A stretch of 12,037 nt of DNA from Candidatus Thorarchaeota archaeon (lineage in GTDB: Archaea; Asgardarchaeota; Thorarchaeia; Thorarchaeales; Thorarchaeaceae): NCBI GenBank assembly GCA_048882045.1, contig JBHLRZ010000057.1:1-12037 (forward strand). Reading direction: 5' to 3'. Below the pieces are notes generated by a model, which made no database searches, had not been told where the DNA came from, and saw only the letters and a list, made by a program, of their open reading frames with translations. A program made the translations under genes and the position numbers. Shown here in pieces: positions 1-12,037 of this stretch (position 1 is the first letter of the stretch; each line of letters opens with the position of its first letter).

Positions 1-453
1 GCTGCCAGAGATATTCTTTCAGTACTTCTCACTGAATACTATTGGTCTAGTGAAGCTCTTTCACCTGAAGAACTTGCGAGTATAACTGGTTATTCTCGTG
101 GCAGTATTAGTGTAGCTATTTCTCAATTACGATCTCTCGGATTCATTGAAACCCGAGTTGACACTAAGCAGGAAGGACGTGGGCGACGACCTACGCTTTA
201 TGCACTTAGTGAGGGTCTCTCTGGACTGATAATGTTCGGAATTAGAAGACTCGGTGTTGAATTAGAAGGTATCCTCAATGAAACTAATGCCATGCAGATA
301 TCAACTGATAGAGATGAAAAAATCGCAGTGGAAGCTCTAGCAAAACTCACGAGAGAAGCAAAACGAAATTCAGAGCAGCTCCGTGAATACACAAGAGTGA
401 TATTATCAACCAAGGTGTTAGAAGAATCTGGCCCTGGGCAAGAAAGTGACTGA
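1..453 (+). CDS. Winged-HTH transcriptional regulator (MarR/GbsR-like), 5'-truncated by the window edge
   Basis: Frame +1 is open from base 1 to TGA 451-453, so the 232..453 track ORF is only its C-terminal part. Translation: AARDILSVLLTEYYWSSEALSPEELASITGYSRGSISVAISQLRSLGFIETRVDTKQEGRGRRPTLYAL... It has an HTH (LSPEELASITGYSRGSISVAISQL), a GRGRR-x-x-LY wing and a helical C-terminus. Paralogous to 6792..7349. Confidence 0.85.
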   Translation, partial: AARDILSVLLTEYYWSSEALSPEELASITGYSRGSISVAISQLRSLGFIETRVDTKQEGRGRRPTLYALSEGLSGLIMFGIRRLGVELEGILNETNAMQISTDRDEKIAVEALAKLTREAKRNSEQLREYTRVILSTKVLEESGPGQESD

Positions 454-526
454 ATCTAGATAATTGCAATAGCTAAACTGCAGTATGGTTGTATAGAAGG
501 AATTAGGATGCTCAGGTGGGCTCTCG

Positions 527-1816
527 ATGTTGGATATGAACAGCAAAATACCTGAACGAATTCGAGAAGAGCTACGAACGAATCCAAAAGGTTTGACAAT
601 AACCGATATCGCAACACGAATACAAGTCAACCGAAATAGTACAGCAAGATATCTTGATGTGCTTCAAATCTCCGGACATGTTGAGATGCGAAAGGTTGGT
701 CCTGCGAAGCTATATTTCCTGTCACAAAGAGTCCCTCTTGAAGCGATGCTGAATCTCTCAGAGGATGGTATACTCACCTTTGATTCCGATTTGAAAGTGA
801 TTCGAGTAAATGACGCTTTTTCCAGAATCGTCTGTATTGAACCCGATGAATTGCTTGGTGCTAGATTAGACCAATTGGAATTGCCCGGATTAGAAAAGGA
901 AGGAATCACACCTCTGTTCATAGAGTCTCTAGCTGGAAAGCAAATAGATTTTGAAACAACCATGCAGAATCAAGGAAAAGCAAAGCATCTCGATGTAAAA
1001 CTGGTTCCAACTACTTTCGATGATGGAAGTTCAGGATCTACAATTTTACTCGAAGATAGCACAAGACGAAAACAGTCTGAAAAAGAAATTCAACGACAAC
1101 ATGCTTTTCTTAATCTTGTGATGGAATCAGTCGCTCATCCATTCTATGTGATTAATGTTAAGGATTTCACAATACAGATGGCAAATAAAGCAGCACGTTT
1201 GGGACTACTCACTCATGACTCTACTTGCTATGAACTCACCCATCGATCAAACAAACCTTGTTCAGGTGATATTCATCCATGTCCACTGAAGCAAGTTGTT
1301 GAAACCAAAAGACCCGCAATAGTAGAACATGTTCACCATCAGGTGAGTGGCAAAACAAGACATGTTGAAATCCATGCACATCCTATTTTTGATCATTCGC
1401 AAAACGTTGTACAAGTAATAGAATACAACCTGGATGTTACAGATAGAAAGCAGGTAGAAGCCGACCTGTCAGCATTACTAGACATGTTTCAGCTGATAGT
1501 TGATAACATTGAAGATGGGGTATTTGTAGTCCAGGCTGATCGAATTGTCTATTGTAATGCATCTCTTTCGAACGCGCTTGGTTATGAGGTACATGAAATA
1601 ACTGGAGTTGATCTATCTCAGTTAATAAAATCTGGTGATTGGGATCCTATCAAAAAAGTTGTTTCAGAAAGTAATCGGGATGGGAAACTATCAAGAATTC
1701 ATGAGCTCAGCATGATCACAAAGAAAAGCAATACCATTTCAATACGGGCAAGAATAACATTGTCCAACTATGCTGGTGCACCGGCTTGGATTTTTAATGT
1801 TCTTAAAAAAATCTAA
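527..1816 (+). CDS. One-component regulator: N-terminal wHTH plus three PAS domains, the middle one Cys-rich
   Basis: HTH GLTITDIATRIQVNRNSTARYLDVLQISGHVEMRKVGPAKLYF. PAS1 starts MLNLSEDGILTFD..VNDAF and ends EDSTRRK. PAS2 carries C-x10-C-x6-CP and ends DVTDRK. PAS3 starts IVDNIEDGVFVVQ..YCN. No kinase or receiver domain. AGGTG at 514-518 is an SD-like site. Confidence 0.88.
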   Translation: MLDMNSKIPERIREELRTNPKGLTITDIATRIQVNRNSTARYLDVLQISGHVEMRKVGPAKLYFLSQRVPLEAMLNLSEDGILTFDSDLKVIRVNDAFSRIVCIEPDELLGARLDQLELPGLEKEGITPLFIESLAGKQIDFETTMQNQGKAKHLDVKLVPTTFDDGSSGSTILLEDSTRRKQSEKEIQRQHAFLNLVMESVAHPFYVINVKDFTIQMANKAARLGLLTHDSTCYELTHRSNKPCSGDIHPCPLKQVVETKRPAIVEHVHHQVSGKTRHVEIHAHPIFDHSQNVVQVIEYNLDVTDRKQVEADLSALLDMFQLIVDNIEDGVFVVQADRIVYCNASLSNALGYEVHEITGVDLSQLIKSGDWDPIKKVVSESNRDGKLSRIHELSMITKKSNTISIRARITLSNYAGAPAWIFNVLKKI

Positions 1817-1993
1817 AATCATGATTTCATTTGAGAATGACAGTTTTCGTCTTGATTCACATACTAAATGACCTTTGCATTGCGAAACTGCTATGCGGAA
1901 CCGCGCTGCCACAATTTCTTTTTATTATTTAGAAAGTATATGATGTTTCAGATGGATGTTACACGACATCTAGCTCTTCAAGGTGACAAAACA

Positions 1994-2110
1994 ATGAGTG
2001 ATTGCAAACATGCGGGCGAAAGAAACGCAGCTGGTCAGATTTGGTGTAATAAGAAGAATATCTATGTGTCTGGAACAGAGAAGAACAGTTGTCCCGACTA
2101 TGAACGATGA
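1994..2110 (+). CDS. 38-aa three-Cys microprotein (copy 1), function unknown
   Basis: AGGTGA SD at 1981-1986 and ATG at 1994. MSDCKHAGERNAAGQIWCNKKNIYVSGTEKNSCPDYER. Its ungapped paralog at 2881-3000 is 24/37 identical, which supports both coding status and this start rather than 1868. Confidence 0.85.
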   Translation: MSDCKHAGERNAAGQIWCNKKNIYVSGTEKNSCPDYER

Positions 2111-2165
2111 ATCCTCTCTTGCAGGATTGGACTCAGCAGATCGGGCAATTAGAGTCATATAGCCT

Positions 2166-2213
2166 GGGACGCGGTTCCACTAAGGGGTCCGAGTCCCTTC
2201 TTTTCTATTCTTT
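2166..2213 (+). terminator. GC-rich hairpin followed by a T-rich tract; putative terminator or 3' structure
   Basis: GGGAC(2166-2170)/GTCCC(2193-2197) stem extended by CGG/CCG and TCC/GGG, immediately followed by TTCTTTTCTATTCTTT. Confidence 0.5.
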
Positions 2214-2294
2214 AGAATTTTGGACTACGTTATAATATACTTTATTCATGTATGTTATTCTAGTGAAATTATTCAATATAATCATAAGAGTCAA

Positions 2295-2325
2295 ATCTTT
2301 TAGATATATCAAAAAGATATATATG
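2295..2325 (+). promoter_or_regulatory. 24-bp near-perfect palindrome next to a BRE/TATA-like element upstream of the 2406 gene run
   Basis: ATCTTTTAGATATATCAAAAAGAT (2295-2318) is self-complementary except one pair. It overlaps AAAAAG-ATATATATG (purine run then TA box) in an AT-rich intergenic region, about 90 bp before ATG 2406. Confidence 0.45.
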
Positions 2326-2405
2326 TGAAAAAAGTATTCTGGCTCTAAGGGTATGGTTAATCCGAAAAAACAGCGGATGAACCCAGATCCCGGGAGATAT
2401 CAAAA

Positions 2406-2873
2406 ATGGATTACAAAGGTCTTTTAGACACTTCTAACGCAGTTGTCGTTGCTGTCGCAGAAGCAATGGTAAACATGGGTCTCGATATCCCACTCATCTG
2501 GACTCAGATGGCTAATGCTTTCCAAGGGAATGCAAAACCCATGTTAAGCCAATTGGGTCTGAATATCGATGGAAACGACGTGAAATCCGTTGTAGAATCT
2601 TTTGTTGCCGAGATTAAGAAGTCCGGTGCTGTTCAGCGATGCAATGTTGTGAGTCTGACAGACACAGAGCTCGTGATGGATATTGGCGAGTGCATTTTTG
2701 CGCCTGCGACAGCTATCATTCGGGGCGGCGATACGAACATGATTCCACCCTGCCCAATGATGGCTATTCTATATGCAGCTCTCAATGAAAAGACTGGCAC
2801 ACATTGCACTGTAACAAATTGTCAGTATAATCCGGACTTGAATGCTAGTGATTTCACAGTGGAACTGGGGTGA
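2406..2873 (+). CDS. V4R / MetOD1-like (HNOB/Bet3-fold superfamily) stand-alone ligand-binding protein
   Basis: 155 aa with a helical N-half, then ELVMDIGECIF...PPCPMMAILYAAL...G..CTVTNC.....SDFTVEL. This fits the strand-C-x-F ... C-helix ... C ... F-x-V pattern of V4R-like domains. Family assignment is by motif recognition only. Confidence 0.6.
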   Translation: MDYKGLLDTSNAVVVAVAEAMVNMGLDIPLIWTQMANAFQGNAKPMLSQLGLNIDGNDVKSVVESFVAEIKKSGAVQRCNVVSLTDTELVMDIGECIFAPATAIIRGGDTNMIPPCPMMAILYAALNEKTGTHCTVTNCQYNPDLNASDFTVELG

Positions 2874-2880
2874 AAATAGA

Positions 2881-3000
2881 ATGGGATCAGATTGCAAATT
2901 CGCAGGTGATACCAATTCCGCAGGTCAGGTCTGGTGTGATAAAAAAAAGATCTACGTCTCTGCAAAAGAGAAGGATAGCTGTGAATTTTATGAAAAATAG
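2881..3000 (+). CDS. 39-aa three-Cys microprotein (copy 2), not in the ORF track
   Basis: ATG 2881 to TAG 2998-3000: MGSDCKFAGDTNSAGQVWCDKKKIYVSAKEKDSCEFYEK. It fills the gap between 2873 and 3012 and has the same C-x13-C-x14-C spacing as 1994..2110. Confidence 0.88.
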   Translation: MGSDCKFAGDTNSAGQVWCDKKKIYVSAKEKDSCEFYEK

Positions 3001-3011
3001 AGGTGAAAGAA

Positions 3012-3374
3012 ATGAGTGCGAAAATAAAGAAACTTGAAGAAATTCTGAAGCAACTCGAGGCTGACAGTGAAGTCGATGGCTGTGCACTTGTTAGTGATAG
3101 GGGTCAGTTAATGGCTGCTGCACTACACAAGGATGTAGATGACAAGGCAGTATCTGCGATGGCAGCCGCACTTGTGTCAATTGGAAGTCGTGTGGGTTCT
3201 GCTCTTGCTTCCGGAGATCCAAAGAACATAGTGATTGAAGGAGATAAGAAGACAGTCATCGTTCGAAAAATATCGAGCGCCGCTATGATTGCCACCGCTC
3301 CAAAGGATGCAAAGATTGGCTTGATTGACTTCGAGATGGATAAAGCTGCAGCATCTGTTGATTCAACACTTTAG
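3012..3374 (+). CDS. Roadblock/LC7 domain protein (MglB-like)
   Basis: GAGGTGA SD at 3000-3006 favours ATG 3012. Typical pattern LEEILKQL..VDGCALVSDRGQLMAA..AVSAMAAALVSIG..IVIEGDKKTVIV..AKIGLIDFEM. Lies directly upstream of a small GTPase. Confidence 0.92.
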   Translation: MSAKIKKLEEILKQLEADSEVDGCALVSDRGQLMAAALHKDVDDKAVSAMAAALVSIGSRVGSALASGDPKNIVIEGDKKTVIVRKISSAAMIATAPKDAKIGLIDFEMDKAAASVDSTL

Positions 3375-3385
3375 CTTGCAGCATA

Positions 3386-4102
3386 TTGCCACGGTTTCAT
3401 GAGTTGGAAACAGAAGAACTAAGGAGATTGGATAACTTGTCTATACGAAAACTGAGGTCATATGACTACAAAGTCTATGTGACTGGACCCTTTCAGGCTG
3501 GAAAGACGACTCTTATTCACACACTCGATCCCAATGCTATGTCAATTGAACGTGACATGAAAGAGGAATATCGAGGTGAGAAGAGTACAACAACAACTGG
3601 GTTTGATCTTGGGCGAGTAATATGGGTCAGAAAAGAAGAATCTCACATGGGTCTAATTGTACCCAAATCAGAGTATGAAACTGAGATTGCGGAATATGAA
3701 GGCTGGATAGCCAAGGAGGTTGAGCTTCGAGGCGTACCAGGCCAACTGCACTTCAAATTTGTAAGAGACACTATGAGGTCCAACACGGATGGTGTTCTTA
3801 TGATTGTGGATTCTTCAGATCCAGGAATGATTGGCGATGCCTGCGCTATACTTGCAGAGACAAAAGGTGCATTTACTGGCACCCCGATTGTTTCTATTGC
3901 TAACAAACAAGACCGAGCTGACGCTGTCGCTCCAGAAGAGGTGGGTGTTTGGTTGGGCGTTTCAGATGTTATTGGGATGTCCGCCAAGAATCGTGAGTCA
4001 TCCAAGACTGCTTTAGTTCTTCTTTTGAGAATGGTTGAGGAAATTTGTCTAACGTCTTCAACAAAAGATGAAGTTGTGGGGGTAGTTCCACAAGCACAGT
4101 AA
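3386..4102 (+). CDS. MglA/CvnD-like small Ras-superfamily GTPase
   Basis: G1 GPFQAGKTT, G2 TTTTGFDLG, G3 GVPGQ (no Asp, as in the MglA family), G4 NKQD, G5 SAK. The TTG start is uncertain. Confidence 0.92.
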   Translation: MPRFHELETEELRRLDNLSIRKLRSYDYKVYVTGPFQAGKTTLIHTLDPNAMSIERDMKEEYRGEKSTTTTGFDLGRVIWVRKEESHMGLIVPKSEYETEIAEYEGWIAKEVELRGVPGQLHFKFVRDTMRSNTDGVLMIVDSSDPGMIGDACAILAETKGAFTGTPIVSIANKQDRADAVAPEEVGVWLGVSDVIGMSAKNRESSKTALVLLLRMVEEICLTSSTKDEVVGVVPQAQ

Positions 4103-4120
4103 TCTTGAGAGGTGTTAATA

Positions 4121-4918
4121 ATGGAGCATGATCAAGTCGATACAAAAAGTGAAACCGAACAACGTGAACTAATTCCTGATCAAACAGTATCTGAGAAACC
4201 AAAGAGAGTACGTAAACCTCAGACCAAAAAGGAAGTTCCGCAACTAAGCAAAGAATCGTCACATACATCTATTGATGATAACTTGCGAGAATCAACTCTT
4301 GATGTGATTACGCCCGATATATCAGAGATCCAAACTGACAATATTTCAGATTCGGGGAAACCACCTCAGCCGCCTGTTGTTGAGCAGACAAATCTAGAGA
4401 AAGAAAATACTTCAACCATCGATAATTCACATGATTCACACGAAAAGGCTGGAGTTGAGGAAACAACTACAGATGCAAATGAAATCGCTCCGATCCAACA
4501 GATTCGTGAACTCCTTACAGATTTTGAGATGCGAGTTTCAGTTTGGGGACTTACAGTCTTCACGGTTGATGGATATATTCTGGCTCATCGTCTGTTTTAT
4601 GATGGTATGCCTGAGAACTTGGAGATGATCGTTAGCAGTATGTCAGCAGGATTGATAACCATCTCTCAGGACTTCATCCGTCTTGTTGCATCTAATTCTT
4701 TGTTCAGACAAGTGTTGGTTGATGCAGATGATGATTCAGGAAATGTTGGTTTCTCTGTATTATTGAAGCAAATTGCAGAGAATGTTATGTTGACTTGTAT
4801 ATTCCCGAGTACAGCGAAGTTGGGTCTTGTTTCATTTGAAATTGAGAATCTTAGCAATGATATCAACGAGATTGTGAAACTCTGGGATGTCAAGCTTCAC
4901 GAGGATACTGTTACTTGA
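4121..4918 (+). CDS. Roadblock/LC7 domain protein with a long low-complexity N-terminal extension
   Basis: GAGGTG SD at 4109-4114 favours ATG 4121. About 125 aa rich in E/T/S/D/P/K precede IRELLTDF..VWGLTVFTVDGYILAH..VSSMSAGLITIS..AKLGLVSFEI, which parallels the first roadblock (AKIGLIDFEM). Confidence 0.85.
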   Translation: MEHDQVDTKSETEQRELIPDQTVSEKPKRVRKPQTKKEVPQLSKESSHTSIDDNLRESTLDVITPDISEIQTDNISDSGKPPQPPVVEQTNLEKENTSTIDNSHDSHEKAGVEETTTDANEIAPIQQIRELLTDFEMRVSVWGLTVFTVDGYILAHRLFYDGMPENLEMIVSSMSAGLITISQDFIRLVASNSLFRQVLVDADDDSGNVGFSVLLKQIAENVMLTCIFPSTAKLGLVSFEIENLSNDINEIVKLWDVKLHEDTVT

Positions 4919-4931
4919 AGGAGGTAAGAAA

Positions 4932-5351
4932 TTGAGAGAAGGAAAAACTGACAAACTAGATAGAATAATGGAAAGCTTAGTGGGTCCCAATCAGAATTTC
5001 ACAAGTTGTGTAGTAACGAATGAGAGGGGTCTTGTTGTTGCTGGAGAATCAATCGAAGGTTTTTCCAGCCAGATATTAGCTGCGATGATCTCTCTCATGT
5101 CAGATACTGCAATTCGTGTGAGTGAGAATCTCGGATATGGACATCCAAAGACCTCATCTATCAAAGGATATGGTGTACTAATTTCAATTCAAGAGTTCAT
5201 GGTGCGAGATAGATGGTTTCGGATAGGGGCTGTTTTGTCCGAAAATACAGAGAGCAGAATGCGTTTCTTCAGGAGAGGTTTCAATCCCGAAAATATCGAA
5301 TCAAGATTAGCAGGAGCCGCAAAGAAACTTCGTTCTATTCTCGAAGATTGA
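4932..5351 (+). CDS. Divergent roadblock/LC7 domain protein
   Basis: GGAGGT SD at 4920-4925 favours TTG 4932, in frame with the 4887 track ORF. Motifs LDRIMESL..FTSCVVTNERGLVVAG..ILAAMISLMSDTAIRVSENLGYG. Confidence 0.82.
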   Translation: MREGKTDKLDRIMESLVGPNQNFTSCVVTNERGLVVAGESIEGFSSQILAAMISLMSDTAIRVSENLGYGHPKTSSIKGYGVLISIQEFMVRDRWFRIGAVLSENTESRMRFFRRGFNPENIESRLAGAAKKLRSILED

Positions 5352-5397
5352 ATTTCCGATGTACAGGATTATTCATTATATGCTGCGGAGGAATGAT

Positions 5398-6792
5398 ATG
5401 ATGGGTGTTAGAAAAGAATTCTATTGGATATATGAAGAATACATCGAATCTAAACAGGACTCGATTTATTGTAACGAGGACCAGACTACATACTCTTGCC
5501 TTGACTGCATATCTCGCTTTATGTTGAAGATGAACCATAAACATCGTGATATTTCAATTGAGGAATTCGTGGAAATTACAGGACTTGATTTCATTAACAA
5601 AGATTCTTTTCAAAAGAATGAAGAACTAACTCTGATTAATATCGACAAGATTTACTTCTTTGATAATGATTCGAATCGATATAACATAACATCAAATGCA
5701 CCAGAAGAAGAAAGGTCACCTGTGTCTAGAATAGAGAAAGCAGAACCATCTGTAGATTTTCTGATTCGTATTCTAGATTCCTTTACTTATCCCTTTTACA
5801 TCATTGATGTAAGTGATTACAAAATTAAGATGGCAAATCGTGCTGCGATGATTGATCAGCTAGATGAAACTAGTACATGTCATTCGATAATTCACAAGAG
5901 TCCTGTTCCGTGTTGGGAGAAAGGTCAAGATTGTCCTCTAATTTACATCAAGAAGACAAAAAAACCTGTTATTCTCGAACACGTACATTTCGATGAAAAT
6001 AGAGACCTTAGAGTCATAGAGGTTCATGGATACCCTGTTCTTGACTCCTCTGGAGAAGTAGTTCAAATCATAAAATATGGTTTCGATGTGACAGATCAGA
6101 AATGGGTTGAAGGTCAACTTGCGAAAGAGTCTAGAAGAGCACGATTATACCTTGACCTATTGGCACATGACATGGCGAATGAATTACAGGTTATTCAGGG
6201 GAGCGCTGAACTTGCTAAAGAAATATTGCTGATTAAAGAAGAATCAGAGATGATACCACGTTTTGTGCATCAGATAGTTGAATCTGTAAACCGATGCATG
6301 ACATTCATTGCTAAAGCCAGATCAACTGAAAACCTTGCATTTGTTCCTCTCGTTGAAAGATCGCTGACTCGAGCACTTTTGGAGTGTGTTGAAACAATAG
6401 GTGAGAAATATACAGATTGTGTATTTATTATTGAGTGTGAGGATTCAGAAGCCGCAGTCATGGCGGACAAATATCTTGAGAATCTTCTCACTAATATTCT
6501 TTCAAATGCGGTAAAGCACAATCCCTCAAAGCAGAGAAGTATCTGGGTGCGACTTTGTCCATCGAATGATGGATATGATATTTCAATTTCTGATAACGGA
6601 CCAGGCATTGAGGACGTGATGAAAGAAATCCTCTTTGATCCTAAACATAGGTTTGGGGGTCTCGGAATTCACTTTTCTTTGCAAATTGTCGAGAAATACG
6701 GGGGGAAAATTACTGTACGTGATCGAGTTCACGGAAAACCGAACGAGGGTGTTGAGTTTGTAATATGGTTACCAAAGATCAGGAGTAGTTAG
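5398..6792 (+). CDS. Soluble PAS-domain sensor histidine kinase
   Basis: H box LYLDLLAHDMANELQVIQG, N box NLLTNILSNAVKHN, G1 ISDNGPGI, F LFDP, G2 GGLGIHFS. It has a Cys-rich PAS domain and no hydrophobic TM segment. GGAGG at 5387-5391 favours ATG 5398 or 5401 over 5359. Confidence 0.93.
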   Translation: MMGVRKEFYWIYEEYIESKQDSIYCNEDQTTYSCLDCISRFMLKMNHKHRDISIEEFVEITGLDFINKDSFQKNEELTLINIDKIYFFDNDSNRYNITSNAPEEERSPVSRIEKAEPSVDFLIRILDSFTYPFYIIDVSDYKIKMANRAAMIDQLDETSTCHSIIHKSPVPCWEKGQDCPLIYIKKTKKPVILEHVHFDENRDLRVIEVHGYPVLDSSGEVVQIIKYGFDVTDQKWVEGQLAKESRRARLYLDLLAHDMANELQVIQGSAELAKEILLIKEESEMIPRFVHQIVESVNRCMTFIAKARSTENLAFVPLVERSLTRALLECVETIGEKYTDCVFIIECEDSEAAVMADKYLENLLTNILSNAVKHNPSKQRSIWVRLCPSNDGYDISISDNGPGIEDVMKEILFDPKHRFGGLGIHFSLQIVEKYGGKITVRDRVHGKPNEGVEFVIWLPKIRSS

Positions 6793-7349
6793 TGAATATG
6801 AAACAAAAGAATGTCATTCTCCCCTTTCTAAGACGTGCCCTTTTCGCAAGCGTCGAACATCTAGGAATACAAAGAAGTGCAACTGAAATTCTTGTCATCC
6901 TTTATCTTGAGAAACAGAAGAATAATCCCACAATGTCAATAAAGGAGATAGTGGAAAAATCAAATCTATCCCTCAGTTCAGTTTCAGTTTTATGCTCACG
7001 GCTAGAAACAGAAGGTATCCTCATCAGACATTCCGATGATTCAACGCTGGGACGTGGAAGAAGGAAGATACTCTATGAGTTTGCCATGGGTATAGATGGA
7101 TTACTTGCACTTGGAACAAACAAGTACATTCGGGATGTTGGACGAATATGCCGGGACATTAAGCTGTACCTAAAACAGAATGAAAGCGAAGATAATGTTC
7201 ACATTGAATTATTATCCAGACTAAAGAATGAGGTTTGCTCTTTTTTAGAACACAACAGAGTAGCTATTGAATCTACTACTTCAATGTTTGAAAAAGAATC
7301 GCAAGGTGAAATTGATTTGAAAGAGAAAATAGTAGAGGGTGCATTTTGA
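6792..7349 (+). CDS. Winged-HTH transcriptional regulator (MarR/GbsR-like)
   Basis: HLGIQRSATEILVILYL..MSIKEIVEKSNLSLSSVSVLCSRLETEGIL..GRGRRKILYEF. GTG 6792 overlaps the kinase stop; ATG 6798 is an alternative start. Confidence 0.85.
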   Translation: MNMKQKNVILPFLRRALFASVEHLGIQRSATEILVILYLEKQKNNPTMSIKEIVEKSNLSLSSVSVLCSRLETEGILIRHSDDSTLGRGRRKILYEFAMGIDGLLALGTNKYIRDVGRICRDIKLYLKQNESEDNVHIELLSRLKNEVCSFLEHNRVAIESTTSMFEKESQGEIDLKEKIVEGAF

Positions 7350-7405
7350 AAATTAAATCATTTGAAAGGAAACTCTTGTTTCAGGATTGACTGCTTTCAC
7401 AAGAA

Positions 7406-8602
7406 ATGAAGAATCTGGAGCGTCGAGATATGATAACGAATGAAAAAGGATTGTTCATCATCCACAGATTTTCTGGAATGGCTCTGTATTCACATGAGTT
7501 TGTAAGAGGTGAATTGGATCCCCAACTGTTATCTGGATTTATTGGTGCAATGACAAGTTTCCTTGGCGAAGCTCTTAGTTCTAAAGAATCTGGCTGGAAG
7601 ACAACATACGGTTCTGAAACAACTCTAATTGTAGAAGCTGGAGAGTGGACAACAGCGGTCTTGGTTGTCTTAAAAGACAATGGCCTTCTTCACAACAAGG
7701 TTCGATTGATAGTTGCTGAATTTGAGAACACATTTCAAGCTTACCGGGAAGTGCCTTGTTTTGAAGGGGGGATAATTGATTCATTTGATGAGTTTGTCAT
7801 GAGAGTTTTCACAGATGAGAAAATTACACCAAGAACATGTATAAGAAAGAAAGAGGATTCGAACGAGGAAATCCTTCCTTTTGCTCGTTTTAGTCAGTCA
7901 TATGTTGTTCACTCCTCGCTTTCAATGCTTGATAAAATAATATCTCTTGAAGAGTTTGCTGAACGCCAGGATATCTCTTTCGAGATGGCAAAAGAAATTG
8001 TTATGTTTGCTTATTGGCATAATGGCATCGACATGCTCTATATTCCATCTGATGATGATATCTTAACTCCAACTGAGAAGTCTCTTTCTACGATTTTTTC
8101 TGATGGGAATCCTCTAGGTCTATCAAGATATACATTGTTTATAGTAGGCAGTTTGAATGGTCGAAAACCACTTGGGAAGCTTCTCAATCGTTGGAACTTG
8201 GAAGAAGAAAATATACGGTTTGAATTGGGCTCTCTGATCACTCAAGGTTTTCTTCAAAAATCAACTCCAGAGCACAATTTGATTCTAGGGCATGAAGCCA
8301 TGCTTAATCGATTCTTAGCGCAGTGCAAGAATCTTGTATCACAACAAACTCTCACGGAAGCACTGCTCACTATTTTTGTAAACGGTATTGAAACACATCC
8401 TTGGCTTTCACGGATTCGCATTCAGGATGGGTTCAATCTGGAATGCAAGATTGATGAAACTATGTCTCCAAATGACTATGGCGATTTGTATGACGCTCTT
8501 CAATATGTGATGAATGAAACAGGTCGAAAATTGTCAGTTGTCATTGACGAAGAGAAGATCAATGAAGCCCTCATTCAGGCAAGACTGAGAGGTTATGGAT
8601 AA
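7406..8602 (+). CDS. Longin-like N-terminal domain plus tandem winged-helix regions (NPRL2-like architecture)
   Basis: The N-terminus GLFIIHRFSGMALYSHEF..LDPQLLSGFIGAMTSFLGE..IVAEFENTF is a typical Asgard longin-like pattern. Two wHTH-like segments follow: LDKIISLEEFAERQDISFEMAKEIVMFAYWHNGI and LNGRKPLGKLLNRWNLEEENIRFELGSLITQGFL. ATG 7430 is an alternative start. Confidence 0.7.
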   Translation: MKNLERRDMITNEKGLFIIHRFSGMALYSHEFVRGELDPQLLSGFIGAMTSFLGEALSSKESGWKTTYGSETTLIVEAGEWTTAVLVVLKDNGLLHNKVRLIVAEFENTFQAYREVPCFEGGIIDSFDEFVMRVFTDEKITPRTCIRKKEDSNEEILPFARFSQSYVVHSSLSMLDKIISLEEFAERQDISFEMAKEIVMFAYWHNGIDMLYIPSDDDILTPTEKSLSTIFSDGNPLGLSRYTLFIVGSLNGRKPLGKLLNRWNLEEENIRFELGSLITQGFLQKSTPEHNLILGHEAMLNRFLAQCKNLVSQQTLTEALLTIFVNGIETHPWLSRIRIQDGFNLECKIDETMSPNDYGDLYDALQYVMNETGRKLSVVIDEEKINEALIQARLRGYG

Positions 8603-8730
8603 TAGTTCTGCATTCTGGAATTATTAATACGGAGCCAAGCCACAAGTCGTTTCTTCTATCGAATTGTTGGAATAGCAGAACATTCAAAACTATCTTCTAT
8701 GACCACGTGACGTAATGTGAGGACCTCACA

Positions 8731-8882
8731 ATGCCAAAGGAATCGTTTGACAAACTCGCTAAGATGAGAGAGAAAGCACTTGAAGCTGGAGGCGAAGAGA
8801 GAAAGAAACTTCAGCATGATGCTGGAAAGTAACTGCCAGAGAGATAATTGAGAAGCTACTCGATCCTGGTTCATTTGTTTAG
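8731..8882 (+). pseudogene. Degraded 5' fragment of an acyl-CoA carboxylase/decarboxylase carboxyltransferase (PccB/MmdA-type beta subunit)
   Basis: GTGAGGA SD then ATG 8731: MPKESFDKLAKMREKALEAGGEERKKLQHDAGK, TAA at 8830. After a 1-nt frameshift it continues TAREIIEKLLDPGSFV, then TAG (8880) where GAG/Glu is expected. Matches the family N-terminal motif GG..R...QH..GKLTARERI..LLDPGSF.E. Confidence 0.85.
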
Positions 8883-9019
8883 GTTGAGCATGTATAGCTC
8901 CTCCAATTCAATCCACGCTTTCTCTTGCTTGTATTTTCTTAACACCGAAAGCTACGGTCGTGCAACATTGTCGAATGAACATAATATAAGAACCAAATGA
9001 ATAAAGGACACTTGACGGA

Positions 9020-9913
9020 GTGGCATGGGATATGGATATCGCGATTGAGTATACAATCAAGAATGACAAGCCCAGGGTACTCATACAGAGGGACCAACCC
9101 ATCACCATCGATACCCAGAAGGCGTTCACACAGACAGATGTACGTCTAAGAAATCAAGAGGTCTTGACCATCAATATCTCTGAGTTGAGCATGTGCCCTA
9201 TCATAGAAGAGGTCGACCTTCGCCTCAATAAAATCGAGCATATTGACCTGACCTCTCTCTCCTCGTGTACTGTTCTTCAAGATCTCACCCTGTCGGGTAA
9301 TCGTCTTCAGGCTCTTGACCTATCTCCACTCAGCTCCTGTACTATGCTTCAGTCCCTCGAGCTCGGCACCAATCAACTGAGTAGTATTGACCTAACCCCC
9401 CTCAGTTCGTGTACTGCCCTGAAAACCATCTATCTAGGGCATAATCAGCTTCAGAGCATTGATCTCACACCCCTCGCCTCCTGTCACGAGCTGAAGAACC
9501 TATGGCTTCACTCGAATCAGCTCAAGCACATTGACTTGAGCCCACTCAGTGGCTGCGTCCATCTGCGGCTTCTCTCTCTCGGTGAAAATCGATTACGAAA
9601 CATCAACCTTGGTCCGTTGAGCAGCTGTACCGATCTAGAATCGCTGGACCTGAGATACAATCTTCTTCGAAAAATCGACCTTGGTCCTCTCAGCTCGTGC
9701 AGTCGCCTGAAATCACTCTCTCTCAGAAGAAACCAGCTGAAAAACATAGATCTCGCTCCCCTCAGTTTCTGCAAAGAGCTATTCACCTTGTTTCTAGACT
9801 ACAATCGACTTAAGAAAATTGATCTAAAGCCACTTGACTCTTGCCCTCGTCTGAACAGTCTCTATCTGAAGGGAAATGCGACGCATTTCGATGACTGGTC
9901 TGCAGACCATTAG
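9020..9913 (+). CDS. Leucine-rich repeat protein, about 10-11 repeats of 22 aa
   Basis: Repeat consensus LxxLxLxxNxLxxIDLxPLSSCxx. No signal peptide or TM segment seen. Start may be GTG 9020 or ATG 9032. Confidence 0.93.
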   Translation: MAWDMDIAIEYTIKNDKPRVLIQRDQPITIDTQKAFTQTDVRLRNQEVLTINISELSMCPIIEEVDLRLNKIEHIDLTSLSSCTVLQDLTLSGNRLQALDLSPLSSCTMLQSLELGTNQLSSIDLTPLSSCTALKTIYLGHNQLQSIDLTPLASCHELKNLWLHSNQLKHIDLSPLSGCVHLRLLSLGENRLRNINLGPLSSCTDLESLDLRYNLLRKIDLGPLSSCSRLKSLSLRRNQLKNIDLAPLSFCKELFTLFLDYNRLKKIDLKPLDSCPRLNSLYLKGNATHFDDWSADH

Positions 9914-10785
9914 GGCGGGCGAAAATCAGTGAGCGACTCCAGTGAGTCGATGGGACTTGTGTCCAGTCCTCTGATCGGATTGTCATCGATTCTCAGAACA
10001 TTGAGTCTGCGACACTCAGAAAGTGGTGTGAGGTCCATGGACCTCAGTCTATTGTCAGACAGGTCGAGATGTGTGAGATTCTTGCACTTTGACAATGGCG
10101 AGAGGTCTATGTCCTCCAGTCGATTCTCAAACAATATGATTTTGTCTAGATTGGTACATTCGGCCAGAGGTGTGAGGTTAATTCTCTGCAATTGGTTTCT
10201 AGCAACAACCAACATTGTCATGTCACACTGCGCAAGCGGCGTCAGGTCCAGTTCTTGCAGCCTGTTCGACCTCAGACTTAGAACGTTCAGTCGCTTACAA
10301 GATGAGAGAGGCGTGAGGTCCAGTGTTTCGATCCCATTCTCGTTGAGCGATACTTCACGTAGACTCTTATTCTGTGCCAAAGGTCCTAGATCACAGCCAG
10401 TTATTTCATTGTTATCACAAATGATCTTCTCAAGACTGGCCAATCCTGCCATAAACTCAAAGTCCATACTGGTCATTCCAAGCCCTATGAAACTGATTCT
10501 TTCGAGAGTGGTACAGTTACCAAGGGGCAATAGGCTCGTTTCTTGAAACCCGCTGCAATATTGAATGAAGAGAGTCTGTAAAATCTCAAGACGTGCTATC
10601 TCTTTCATCAATCTGGTAGAGAACGGACCCACATCACTGAAGGCGAGGTATTCCAAACTTGGAACATTGACCAGTAGATCGGGGAGTGCAGTGAGTGGTG
10701 TGAAGTCTCTAAGATAGAGATGTTTCAGGTTCTCCAGTTGCCTCAGGGGTGAGAAGTCAAGACCCTCCAATGATTCCCCTCTCAA
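9910..10785 (-). CDS. Leucine-rich repeat protein, about 12 repeats; 5' end possibly truncated or frameshifted
   Basis: LxxLxLxxNxLxxLDLTPLxxC repeats, regular at the C-terminus and irregular at the N-terminus. The frame stays open and LRR-like (TILENLTL) upstream of the TTG up to stops at 10825-10830. Confidence 0.85.
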   Translation of the reverse strand: MRGESLEGLDFSPLRQLENLKHLYLRDFTPLTALPDLLVNVPSLEYLAFSDVGPFSTRLMKEIARLEILQTLFIQYCSGFQETSLLPLGNCTTLERISFIGLGMTSMDFEFMAGLASLEKIICDNNEITGCDLGPLAQNKSLREVSLNENGIETLDLTPLSSCKRLNVLSLRSNRLQELDLTPLAQCDMTMLVVARNQLQRINLTPLAECTNLDKIILFENRLEDIDLSPLSKCKNLTHLDLSDNRLRSMDLTPLSECRRLNVLRIDDNPIRGLDTSPIDSLESLTDFRPP

Positions 10786-10915
10786 GGTAAGGTTTTCTAG
10801 AATTGTGACTCGACCTACCCATATTCATTACTTCAACTACTATCAAGCAATGTACTCCACTGCCTATTTATCAATTTCAATGCAGATGAATCAGAAGACC
10901 AGATTCATAAGTTAG

Positions 10916-12037
10916 ATGGAGTTCCTGGAGAGGAAGATAGTCGTGATAATTCTTAATGCTGAGATCTCTGATGGAACTATTGAAGAGTTTGAGGTTGATG
11001 ATGACCAAACAGAAGTCTATCTCGAATATTGCGATATCATCAGCATTGATCTTTCCCCACTCAGTTCATGTGATGAGTTGGTGAAGCTTAGTCTGATTAG
11101 TAACGCGATTGAGCGTATCGACCTGACCCCCCTAAAATCTTGTGCCAATCTGCAATTTCTATGGCTCAAGGAGAATGAACTAGAAACGATCGACTTGTCA
11201 CCACTCAGCTTATGTCATAACTTAAGGGAACTATCTATTACGGGGAATTTTCTCAGAGAAGTCGATTTGAGTCCCCTTCGGAACTGTACTGGTCTTGAAC
11301 TGTTGGGTCTGGGTGCAAACAGGCTCAAGCATGTTGATCTTGAACCACTGAGGTACTTTGGAGAGCTTGATGTTCTTTATCTCTTTGATAACGGACTCAA
11401 GAGCATCGACCTTGACCCGCTACGTTCCTGTATGAAATTCAAGGAACTTCAGCTCTATCAAAATGACCTGACTGAGGTTGAGCTAACTCCCCTCCGTACC
11501 TGTGTTAATCTGAACTGGCTAGACGTGAGCACAAATCAATTATCAGTAATCGACCTGGCACCTCTCGGCACCTGCACGAACCTCTCAAAGCTGAATCTCA
11601 GCAGTAACTTGCTTGAGAGTATTGACCTCCGTCCTCTGAGTGCATGCAGAGGTCTCGATGCACTCGCCCTGAATAATAACTGGCTCACAACGCTCGACCT
11701 CTCGCCTTTGGTCATGTGTCAGGATCTGACGCAAATATACCTCCAGAACAATAAGCTCAGAAAACTCGACCTCACTCCCCTGGGACTGGCTGACGGACTG
11801 AGTAGCAGTAGCTGGGAGATGCACTTCTTCGTGGACTCTTATATTCCGCTAATTGAAACCCTGTTCAGCGAGCAGAACTTCTGGTCAGTATACAGTGAAA
11901 CGCCATTATCCATTCGATATGACACACCTCTGTTCATTCCAGACCTGACAGTCATATCACAAATCATGAACAAGGTCATCACAAGTGAGCTGAAATGGAA
12001 GACAACACATCTCCTTCACAACACCCTCTTGCTTCTC
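10916..12037 (+). CDS. Leucine-rich repeat protein, 11 repeats plus a non-LRR C-terminal region; runs off the window, not in the ORF track
   Basis: Open from ATG 10916 (GTG 10943 is an alternative) to the window end: MEFLERKIVVIILNAEISDGTIEEFEVDDDQTEVYLEYCDIISIDLSPLSSCDELVKLSLISNAIERIDLTPLKSC... Eleven (D/E)LxPL units, then GLSSSSWEMHFFVDSYIPL...KWKTTHLLHNTLLLL. Confidence 0.93.
   Translation, partial: MEFLERKIVVIILNAEISDGTIEEFEVDDDQTEVYLEYCDIISIDLSPLSSCDELVKLSLISNAIERIDLTPLKSCANLQFLWLKENELETIDLSPLSLCHNLRELSITGNFLREVDLSPLRNCTGLELLGLGANRLKHVDLEPLRYFGELDVLYLFDNGLKSIDLDPLRSCMKFKELQLYQNDLTEVELTPLRTCVNLNWLDVSTNQLSVIDLAPLGTCTNLSKLNLSSNLLESIDLRPLSACRGLDALALNNNWLTTLDLSPLVMCQDLTQIYLQNNKLRKLDLTPLGLADGLSSSSWEMHFFVDSYIPLIETLFSEQNFWSVYSETPLSIRYDTPLFIPDLTVISQIMNKVITSELKWKTTHLLHNTLLLL

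Follow-up and report, generated by a model that had tools for sequence, protein, structure and literature searches.

Accessory subunits with the HiPIP fold have been described for glycyl radical enzymes, with no agreement on what their clusters do. Such small subunits cover the surface of their partner and dissociate upon removal of the cluster, and one of the clusters of HPAD gamma, the small subunit of 4-hydroxyphenylacetate decarboxylase, is ligated by three Cys residues and a His (PMC13450708). CX2C-Xn-C-Xn-C is the [4Fe-4S] motif of the BSS and MASS subunits, but one of the MASS subunits that carry a motif of this type holds just one Fe (PMC12358834), so the Cys motif alone leaves the cofactor unfixed. 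The Ser-ligated C77S HiPIP, as named in a title cited in PMC6659574, provides a precedent for a non-Cys fourth ligand. No small Cys-containing subunit is described for the TRAPPC3/V4R proteins; in MK-D1, the genes for GTPases are generally found outside the operons with RB or TRAPPC3 genes, and matching of Asgard GTPases to their regulators by gene order is reported to be difficult (PMC10933270).

The locus described here comes from a Candidatus Thorarchaeota archaeon (GCA_048882045.1). The window, that is, the whole stretch of DNA that was analyzed, covers positions 1 to 12,037 (12,037 nucleotides) of contig JBHLRZ010000057.1 and includes the following genes:

527..1816, plus strand, wHTH-PAS-PAS-PAS regulator, upstream of copy A
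1994..2110, plus strand, copy A, a 38-aa three-Cys microprotein of predicted HiPIP-like fold, stand-alone paralogue upstream of the V4R gene
2406..2873, plus strand, 155-aa protein of predicted V4R/TRAPPC3 fold with near-invariant Cys96 and Cys116, the predicted binding partner
2881..3000, plus strand, copy B, a 39-aa three-Cys microprotein of predicted HiPIP-like fold, in the canonical place directly after the V4R gene
3012..3374, plus strand, roadblock/LC7 (MglB-like) protein, 120 aa from the ATG (Pfam PF03259, E 3e-12)
3386..4102, plus strand, MglA-like small GTPase (Pfam Arf, E 3.8e-7; TIGR00231, E 4e-6, under the cut-off)
4112..4918, plus strand, low-complexity N-terminal arm and roadblock-like C-terminal part, no Pfam match
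4887..5351, plus strand, divergent roadblock-like protein (PF03259, E 0.014)
5359..6792, plus strand, PAS-histidine kinase (HATPase_c, E 2e-16; HisKA and PAS weak)

The roadblock and small GTPase genes are adjacent, as in the MglA/MglB modules, and the true start of the GTPase is probably near position 3450. The C-terminal part of the 4112-4918 product matches divergent roadblock-like genes of related loci, and its low-complexity arm differs in length among genomes. MarR/GbsR-like wHTH genes at 1-453 and 6792-7349 bracket the module, and the window holds no receiver gene for the histidine kinase. The 398-aa protein encoded at 7406-8602, which has no family match, is likewise retained behind the wHTH gene at two further Thorarchaeota loci. 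Three leucine-rich-repeat genes, at 9020-9913 (plus strand), 9910-10785 (minus strand), and 10916-12037 (plus strand), consist of 24-residue units that are the source of 72-base repeats.

The two microprotein genes, which an original prediction had proposed from the DNA sequence alone, were recovered as open reading frames at the same positions and are the sole two copies in the 3.6-Mb assembly. They align without gaps with 24 of 37 residues identical (tblastn E 3e-16), both have the C-x13-C-x14-C spacing, and copy B is indeed embedded between the V4R and roadblock genes. Longer in-frame ATG starts (1868 and 2842) were dismissed for lack of conservation. The description of the two genes as unannotated holds for the copies themselves, which are nameless, but some of their relatives are present in public records as "hypothetical protein." The predicted selection on the protein is borne out by the codon differences. 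Eleven codons in the alignment of the two copies differ only synonymously, and pS between them is 0.81, against a pN of 0.21; synonymous sites being saturated, the duplication must be old. Compared with its orthologue in the nearest genome, copy A has a dN of 0.023 and a dS of 0.32, and copy B has a dN of 0.011 and a dS of 0.17, that is, a dN/dS of ∼0.07 for each copy; pooled over four congeners, pN/pS is 0.052/0.75 for copy A and 0.026/0.53 for copy B. These substitution patterns show copies A and B to be real genes under purifying selection.

Homologues of the microprotein, anticipated in Asgard genomes, were detected by profile search in 40 of 400 of these genomes and in 13 of the 90 of high quality. 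The taxa named in the respective records include Thor-, Promethe/Loki-, Hermod-, Hel-, and Freyarchaeota; outside the Asgard archaea, the family occurs in Zixibacteria. Single-protein queries with the microprotein and with its 155-aa V4R neighbor led to an identical set of 8 genomes among 61. Close V4R relatives (E below 1e-20, a cut-off of our own choosing) are also encoded in 40 of the 400 Asgard genomes, 38 of them in common with the microprotein set; this overlap is descriptive and carries no statistic, as the genomes are related by kinship and adjacent genes were the source of the V4R profile. Two genomes with fused copies only, one V4R gene truncated at the edge of its contig, and a single paralogue with no partner make up the exceptions. 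Among 69 distinct domain sequences, 45 are encoded directly after a V4R gene, 7 directly before one, and 2 in tandem with no V4R gene in view, whereas 15 end a long ORF; the first two positions thus make up 45 and 7 of the 54 free-standing sequences, respectively. The position before V4R, which is that of copy A, is found in 7 Thorarchaeota genomes from 4 genera. Gene neighborhoods show the linkage of the microprotein to V4R to be fixed. Most loci also carry roadblock and MglA-like GTPase genes, and at least three V4R-microprotein pairs do not. The expected linkage to roadblock/GTPase loci is therefore frequent but not obligatory, and the invariant unit consists of V4R and the microprotein.

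The long-ORF members that were tested are (HEAT)-GNAT acetyltransferases from the same locus. In six Lokiarchaeota loci (L049, L053, L054, L055, L058, and L069), the three-Cys module is found at the C terminus of such a protein (for example, L054:7985-9493), and the fusion gene sits after the GTPase and roadblock genes, divergent from V4R, which suggests that acetylation is a part of the V4R-microprotein-GTPase module. Contigs of Zixibacteria and related bacteria carry a roadblock gene, V4R, and three tandem microproteins, often followed by another roadblock and a GTPase. The tandem triplets occupy L112:5598-6129, L114:5643-6129, and L116:5600-6126, with PatA_N/FHA and more V4R genes nearby. 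The V4R-microprotein pair is retained in these bacteria, and such loci hint at transfer between Asgard archaea and bacteria, in either direction.

Several loci depart from these patterns. Genome G391 has two copies ∼430 bases apart (L065:4318-4906) with no V4R gene in view, both related to its upstream copy. In G212, the microprotein after V4R stops after the second Cys (L132:1500-1610), owing to a frameshift or an assembly error. Loci L128, L131, and L079 contain tandem pairs of distant V4R-like genes with no microprotein, possibly encoding heterodimers like TRAPPC3/C6.

The microproteins, searched singly, as a 77-row alignment, and as a 13-row alignment of four-Cys members, had no significant matches in Pfam, NCBIfam, or PDB sequences. 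Literature searches found no paper describing the family and none on an MglA/MglB-type module with a V4R and Cys-microprotein unit. Similarly, no sequence-level match to HiPIP, BssC, or HPAD gamma was found: the HiPIP model PF01355 stayed below its cut-off (best E 0.47, in 1 of 77 members), PF08201 gave an E of 0.61 in one member, and genome searches with PF18524 and PF18671 had no matches, their controls being silent as well. The resemblance appears at the level of predicted structure. The AlphaFold2 model of copy B, built from 77 sequences, has a pLDDT of 89, and eight of the nine matches listed in its comparison with 48,161 solved chains are HiPIP-fold [4Fe-4S] proteins. The best is HPAD gamma (2y8n_B; Z 4.2, rmsd 1.8, 37 residues aligned), and MASS, BSS beta, and four true HiPIPs follow at Z 2.2-2.6, with 4pkf_B and 9o8u_F at Z 2.6. 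Low Z scores are to be expected of a 39-residue chain, and the weight of the fold match lies in the uniformity of the list. Foldseek also gave 2y8n_B the highest TM-score (0.66), but with an E of 8.5, and no match of the 39-aa model had an E below 2; zinc-finger and WW entries in that output were dismissed as noise level.

Three Cys residues are invariant in all 77 sequences. The 45 V4R-adjacent members comprise 8 with a CxxC motif, 7 with CxC, and 30 with three Cys, mostly in the form S-D-C. Copies A and B lack the first Cys of the CxxC; within the family, comparison of these variants places an own fourth Cys (CxxC) in the ancestral form. The first Cys of the two copies is at residue 4-5, leaving no room for a signal peptide. 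The original suggestion of a Zn- or Fe-S-binding module is supported as far as metal binding goes, and the predicted fold favors Fe-S over Zn, although three Cys could equally bind Zn. The microprotein may thus bind a cluster, and that cluster may be labile.

The putative partner of the microproteins, the 155-aa V4R protein, was modeled with a pLDDT of 91 and has the two-layer, four-helix, four-strand V4R/TRAPPC3 fold. Its model matches Thorarchaeota TRAPPC3 7yh2 at Z 10.5 (rmsd 3.6, 146 residues aligned), tied with yeast and fly TRAPP subunits; Z is 10.1 to 3cue_B and 8.8 to PoxR, and Foldseek gives an E of 1e-4 to TRAPPC3. Two of its Cys residues are near-invariant, and the others vary across relatives. 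When a V4R dimer was co-folded with copy B, the copy used in these runs, and with a 4Fe-4S cluster that was supplied and left unscored, the ipSAE was 0.83, compared to 0.01 for the best of three controls. Of 80 solved complexes, 58 attain this mark, as do 2 among 110 mismatched pairs, a calibration that is rough in this case, where own alignments were used and a ligand was added. The runs agreed in at least 97% of contacts, and partner pLDDT was at least 81. No solved complex of the V4R-microprotein kind was found, and the score is unlikely to reflect recall of a similar solved structure. The predictions support binding of copy B to the V4R dimer, one of the pairings for which co-folding had originally been proposed as a check.

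On the microprotein side, the predicted interface spans residues 10-33, with W18 and K22-S27, parts of a hairpin kept in both copies, at its center; on the V4R side, it includes residues 3-8, 77, 95-104, and 143-146 and, in the second subunit, residues 45-49. In an independent check, the V4R paralogues with no adjoining microprotein in G035 and G371 were seen to be changed at Y3, K4, L7, Q77, E95, P143, and N146, all seven of which belong to the predicted interface; these two genomes represent one genus and, hence, one event. Conservation is mildly higher at the V4R interface than in the rest of the protein (0.66 versus 0.56, p 0.04) and shows no enrichment at the microprotein interface (0.69 versus 0.69).

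The original prediction had the fourth metal ligand supplied by a partner. In the corresponding scheme of a shared metal site, the donor would be Cys96 or Cys116 of V4R. In the model, Cys96 touches microprotein residue 24, and the only three V4R proteins that lack both Cys (L073, L077, and L078) pair with four-Cys microproteins (3 of 7, versus 0 of 36 for the others). Yet these three double losses occurred in related lineages, the V4R Cys residues are retained in four further pairs with four-Cys microproteins, and in V4R/TRAPPC3 folds the usual role of Cys residues in this region is to build an internal Zn site (PMC10933270). Moreover, the residues named in the predicted interface, those left unnamed being uncertain, do not include microprotein residues 1-9, Cys5, Cys19, or Cys34, the region expected to hold the missing ligand; this argues against its being supplied by V4R. 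With an ancestral fourth Cys of the family's own (CxxC in 8 of 45), this part of the prediction did not hold up: according to the model, the V4R partner probably supplies no fourth ligand, and a shared site is unlikely.

Given the match in fold, the microprotein might alternatively be a free electron carrier of the mini-HiPIP or ferredoxin-like type or a subunit of a glycyl radical enzyme, merely co-located with V4R and not bound to it. The genome does encode four PFL-like glycyl radical enzymes, but their genes are on other contigs of the source assembly (C2, C3, C16, and C39; L120-L122), and the neighbors of the microprotein genes code for V4R, roadblock, and GTPase proteins. Linkage to V4R rather than to redox enzymes, in archaea and bacteria alike, the co-fold result, and the changes in the partner-less paralogues make this explanation quite improbable. 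In predicted fold and docking, the microprotein appears to work like a glycyl radical enzyme small subunit; by ligand number, sequence, and context, it belongs neither to these subunits nor to the HiPIPs.

The stand-alone copy had been predicted to be separately regulated. The following signals bear on its expression:

1932..1970, plus strand, promoter-like block of copy A: purine-rich BRE/TATA-like stretch at 1932-1942, then a palindrome at 1955-1970
1980..1986, plus strand, SD-like AAGGTGA of copy A; orthologues have similar motifs
2166..2206, plus strand, stem-loop with T-rich tail, a weak candidate for the copy A terminator
2298..2333, plus strand, BRE/TATA-like block before the V4R operon, near-invariant in four congeners, putative function
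2867..2873, SD-like GGGGTGA of copy B, overlapping the V4R stop

The putative promoter block of copy A is kept in G000 (the source assembly), G004, G002, and G021, and G002 has a different gene upstream. Its palindrome, GATGTT-N4-AACATC, lies where copy A transcription probably starts, is shared by four congeners, and could be an operator bound by one of the locus's three wHTH proteins. It does not define a regulon: a genome search gave no further perfect copy and a raw count of 28 one-mismatch matches with no evident pattern. Conserved promoter-like blocks before copy A and before V4R agree with the predicted separate regulation, and copy A is likely to be transcribed separately. Other signals are less distinctive than had been thought: copy A does have its own Shine-Dalgarno motif, but an SD-like GGTGA lies a few bases 5' of the ATG in both copies. 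The predicted 3' hairpin with its T-rich tail is present as well, but the stem-loop at 2166-2197, taken by itself, falls short of significance (z −1.68; 14 of 200 shuffles are as good). Unrelated hairpins follow the counterparts of copy A in G021 and G363.

Of the 17 residues at the interface, 12 are retained in copy A, as are 8 of the 9 with the best contacts, and the GNAT tails keep the interface residues in large part. With separate regulation and a preserved docking surface, competition with copy B or substitution for it is feasible; the competition and the redox adaptor role originally proposed are both hypotheses. In the tree, upstream copies group together with one interloper, and a one-clade test, based on few columns, does not reject a single origin (p-AU 0.35). 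Extra copies recur in the family, as upstream copies in four Thorarchaeota genera, as GNAT fusions in Lokiarchaeota, and as tandem triplets in bacteria. Copy A is missing in several Thorarchaeota that keep copy B, as would be expected if a local duplication had left it behind as a redundant copy without a role of its own. That explanation is very improbable indeed in light of its pN/pS among congeners, its synonymous saturation relative to copy B, and its presence in four genera.

The combined evidence of the HiPIP-like fold, V4R linkage, co-folding, and altered interfaces of partner-less paralogues supports a reading of the microproteins as minimal HiPIP-fold small subunits of the adjoining V4R/TRAPPC3-fold dimer. 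The hairpin of W18 and K22-S27 is predicted to dock on V4R and touch the second subunit. The three Cys would hold an Fe-S cluster, the fourth position being open or occupied by a weak ligand, such as the S-D that immediately precedes Cys5, a water molecule, or some small compound. The outcome could be a [3Fe-4S] or a site-differentiated [4Fe-4S] cluster, labile to oxygen, redox state, or iron supply. The state of the cluster would decide whether the microprotein is folded and bound and, through that, set the state of the V4R sensor. Sensor output may then feed the downstream roadblock-MglA-like GTPase and kinase genes, gene order being the one line of evidence for the step from V4R to the GTPase. 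Copy B would be the operon-encoded subunit, and copy A an isoform of long standing, transcribed separately and docking through the same face, that supplements or replaces copy B under other conditions. The proposal that a small Fe-S subunit, its fourth site open, informs V4R and, through it, GTPase and kinase of redox, oxygen, or iron status, with copy A as a separately regulated isoform, is the most likely of the explanations considered and, in our judgment, as likely as not. Its stronger form, in which a site-differentiated Fe-S microprotein is an exchangeable subunit of the V4R dimer that gates the roadblock-GTPase pair by oxygen or redox state and the paralogues, be they a separately transcribed isoform, tandem triplets, or an acetyltransferase tag, compete for the docking site, is put forward tentatively, as a minority possibility.

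Co-folding favors binding and is silent on sensing. The microprotein could be a purely structural subunit, bound to V4R and folded by a stable Zn or an inert Fe-S cluster, that stabilizes or solubilizes the V4R dimer, with copy A as a dosage supplement. The gamma subunits of glycyl radical enzymes are thought to serve mainly solubility, with the role of their cluster unresolved (PMC13450708), and the first Cys is dispensable across the family. Still, the repeated loss of exactly one ligand while three Cys stay invariant in 77 sequences, the reuse of the module on a GNAT enzyme, and the separately regulated copy all fit a regulatory module better, and a structural role only is doubtful, if still a serious contender.

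For work on the functions of the Asgard TRAPPC3/V4R, roadblock, and small GTPase proteins, this locus offers a conserved set of genes in one operon, and the specific complex predicted from it is open to testing with no more than two small recombinant proteins. The microproteins may be a hitherto unnoticed route by which metal or redox state acts on a small-GTPase signaling module and would extend HiPIP-fold accessory subunits into signaling; the four-Cys, CxC, and three-Cys forms in which their 38-residue scaffold occurs in nature are on offer for Fe-S chemistry. If the Fe-S reading is true, a site-differentiated Fe-S subunit would convey redox state to a prokaryotic precursor of GTPase regulation of the TRAPP/Ragulator type.

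Among the known systems, the closest to the microproteins are HPAD gamma (2y8n_B) and the beta and gamma subunits of BSS and MASS, with which they share the predicted HiPIP-like fold and, in their four-Cys relatives, the CX2C-Xn-C-Xn-C motif. Those, too, are cytoplasmic small subunits that dock on a larger protein, as predicted for the microproteins. In contrast to them, each microprotein is a single 38-39-aa module with undetectable sequence similarity, copies A and B have three Cys and no conserved His, and the partner is a V4R/TRAPPC3-fold protein in a signaling locus instead of a glycyl radical enzyme. With the HiPIPs, the microproteins have in common the core fold (Z 2.2-2.5, ∼35 residues aligned), the Cys spacing, and conserved aromatic residues beside the Cys; unlike HiPIPs, they have no export signal, are shorter than the usual 50-100 aa, have lost the first Cys, and are found in a gene context that is neither respiratory nor photosynthetic. 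The uncharacterized family DUF6472 (PF20076), of similar size, gave a language-model feature score of 0.91 (194/256) with a four-Cys relative, but its HMM does not match the microproteins, which makes it a lead only. The V4R protein shares its fold with Thorarchaeota TRAPPC3 (7yh2 and 7yh3) and the V4R domains of PoxR and DmpR, and its Cys pair is in the region of the known Zn site, but identity is ∼10% and there is no Pfam V4R or TRAPP match. Finally, the roadblock gene stands directly before the MglA-like GTPase gene, as it does in MglA/MglB modules, with extra roadblocks and a kinase nearby, and to this arrangement the locus adds an input unit composed of V4R and a Cys microprotein.
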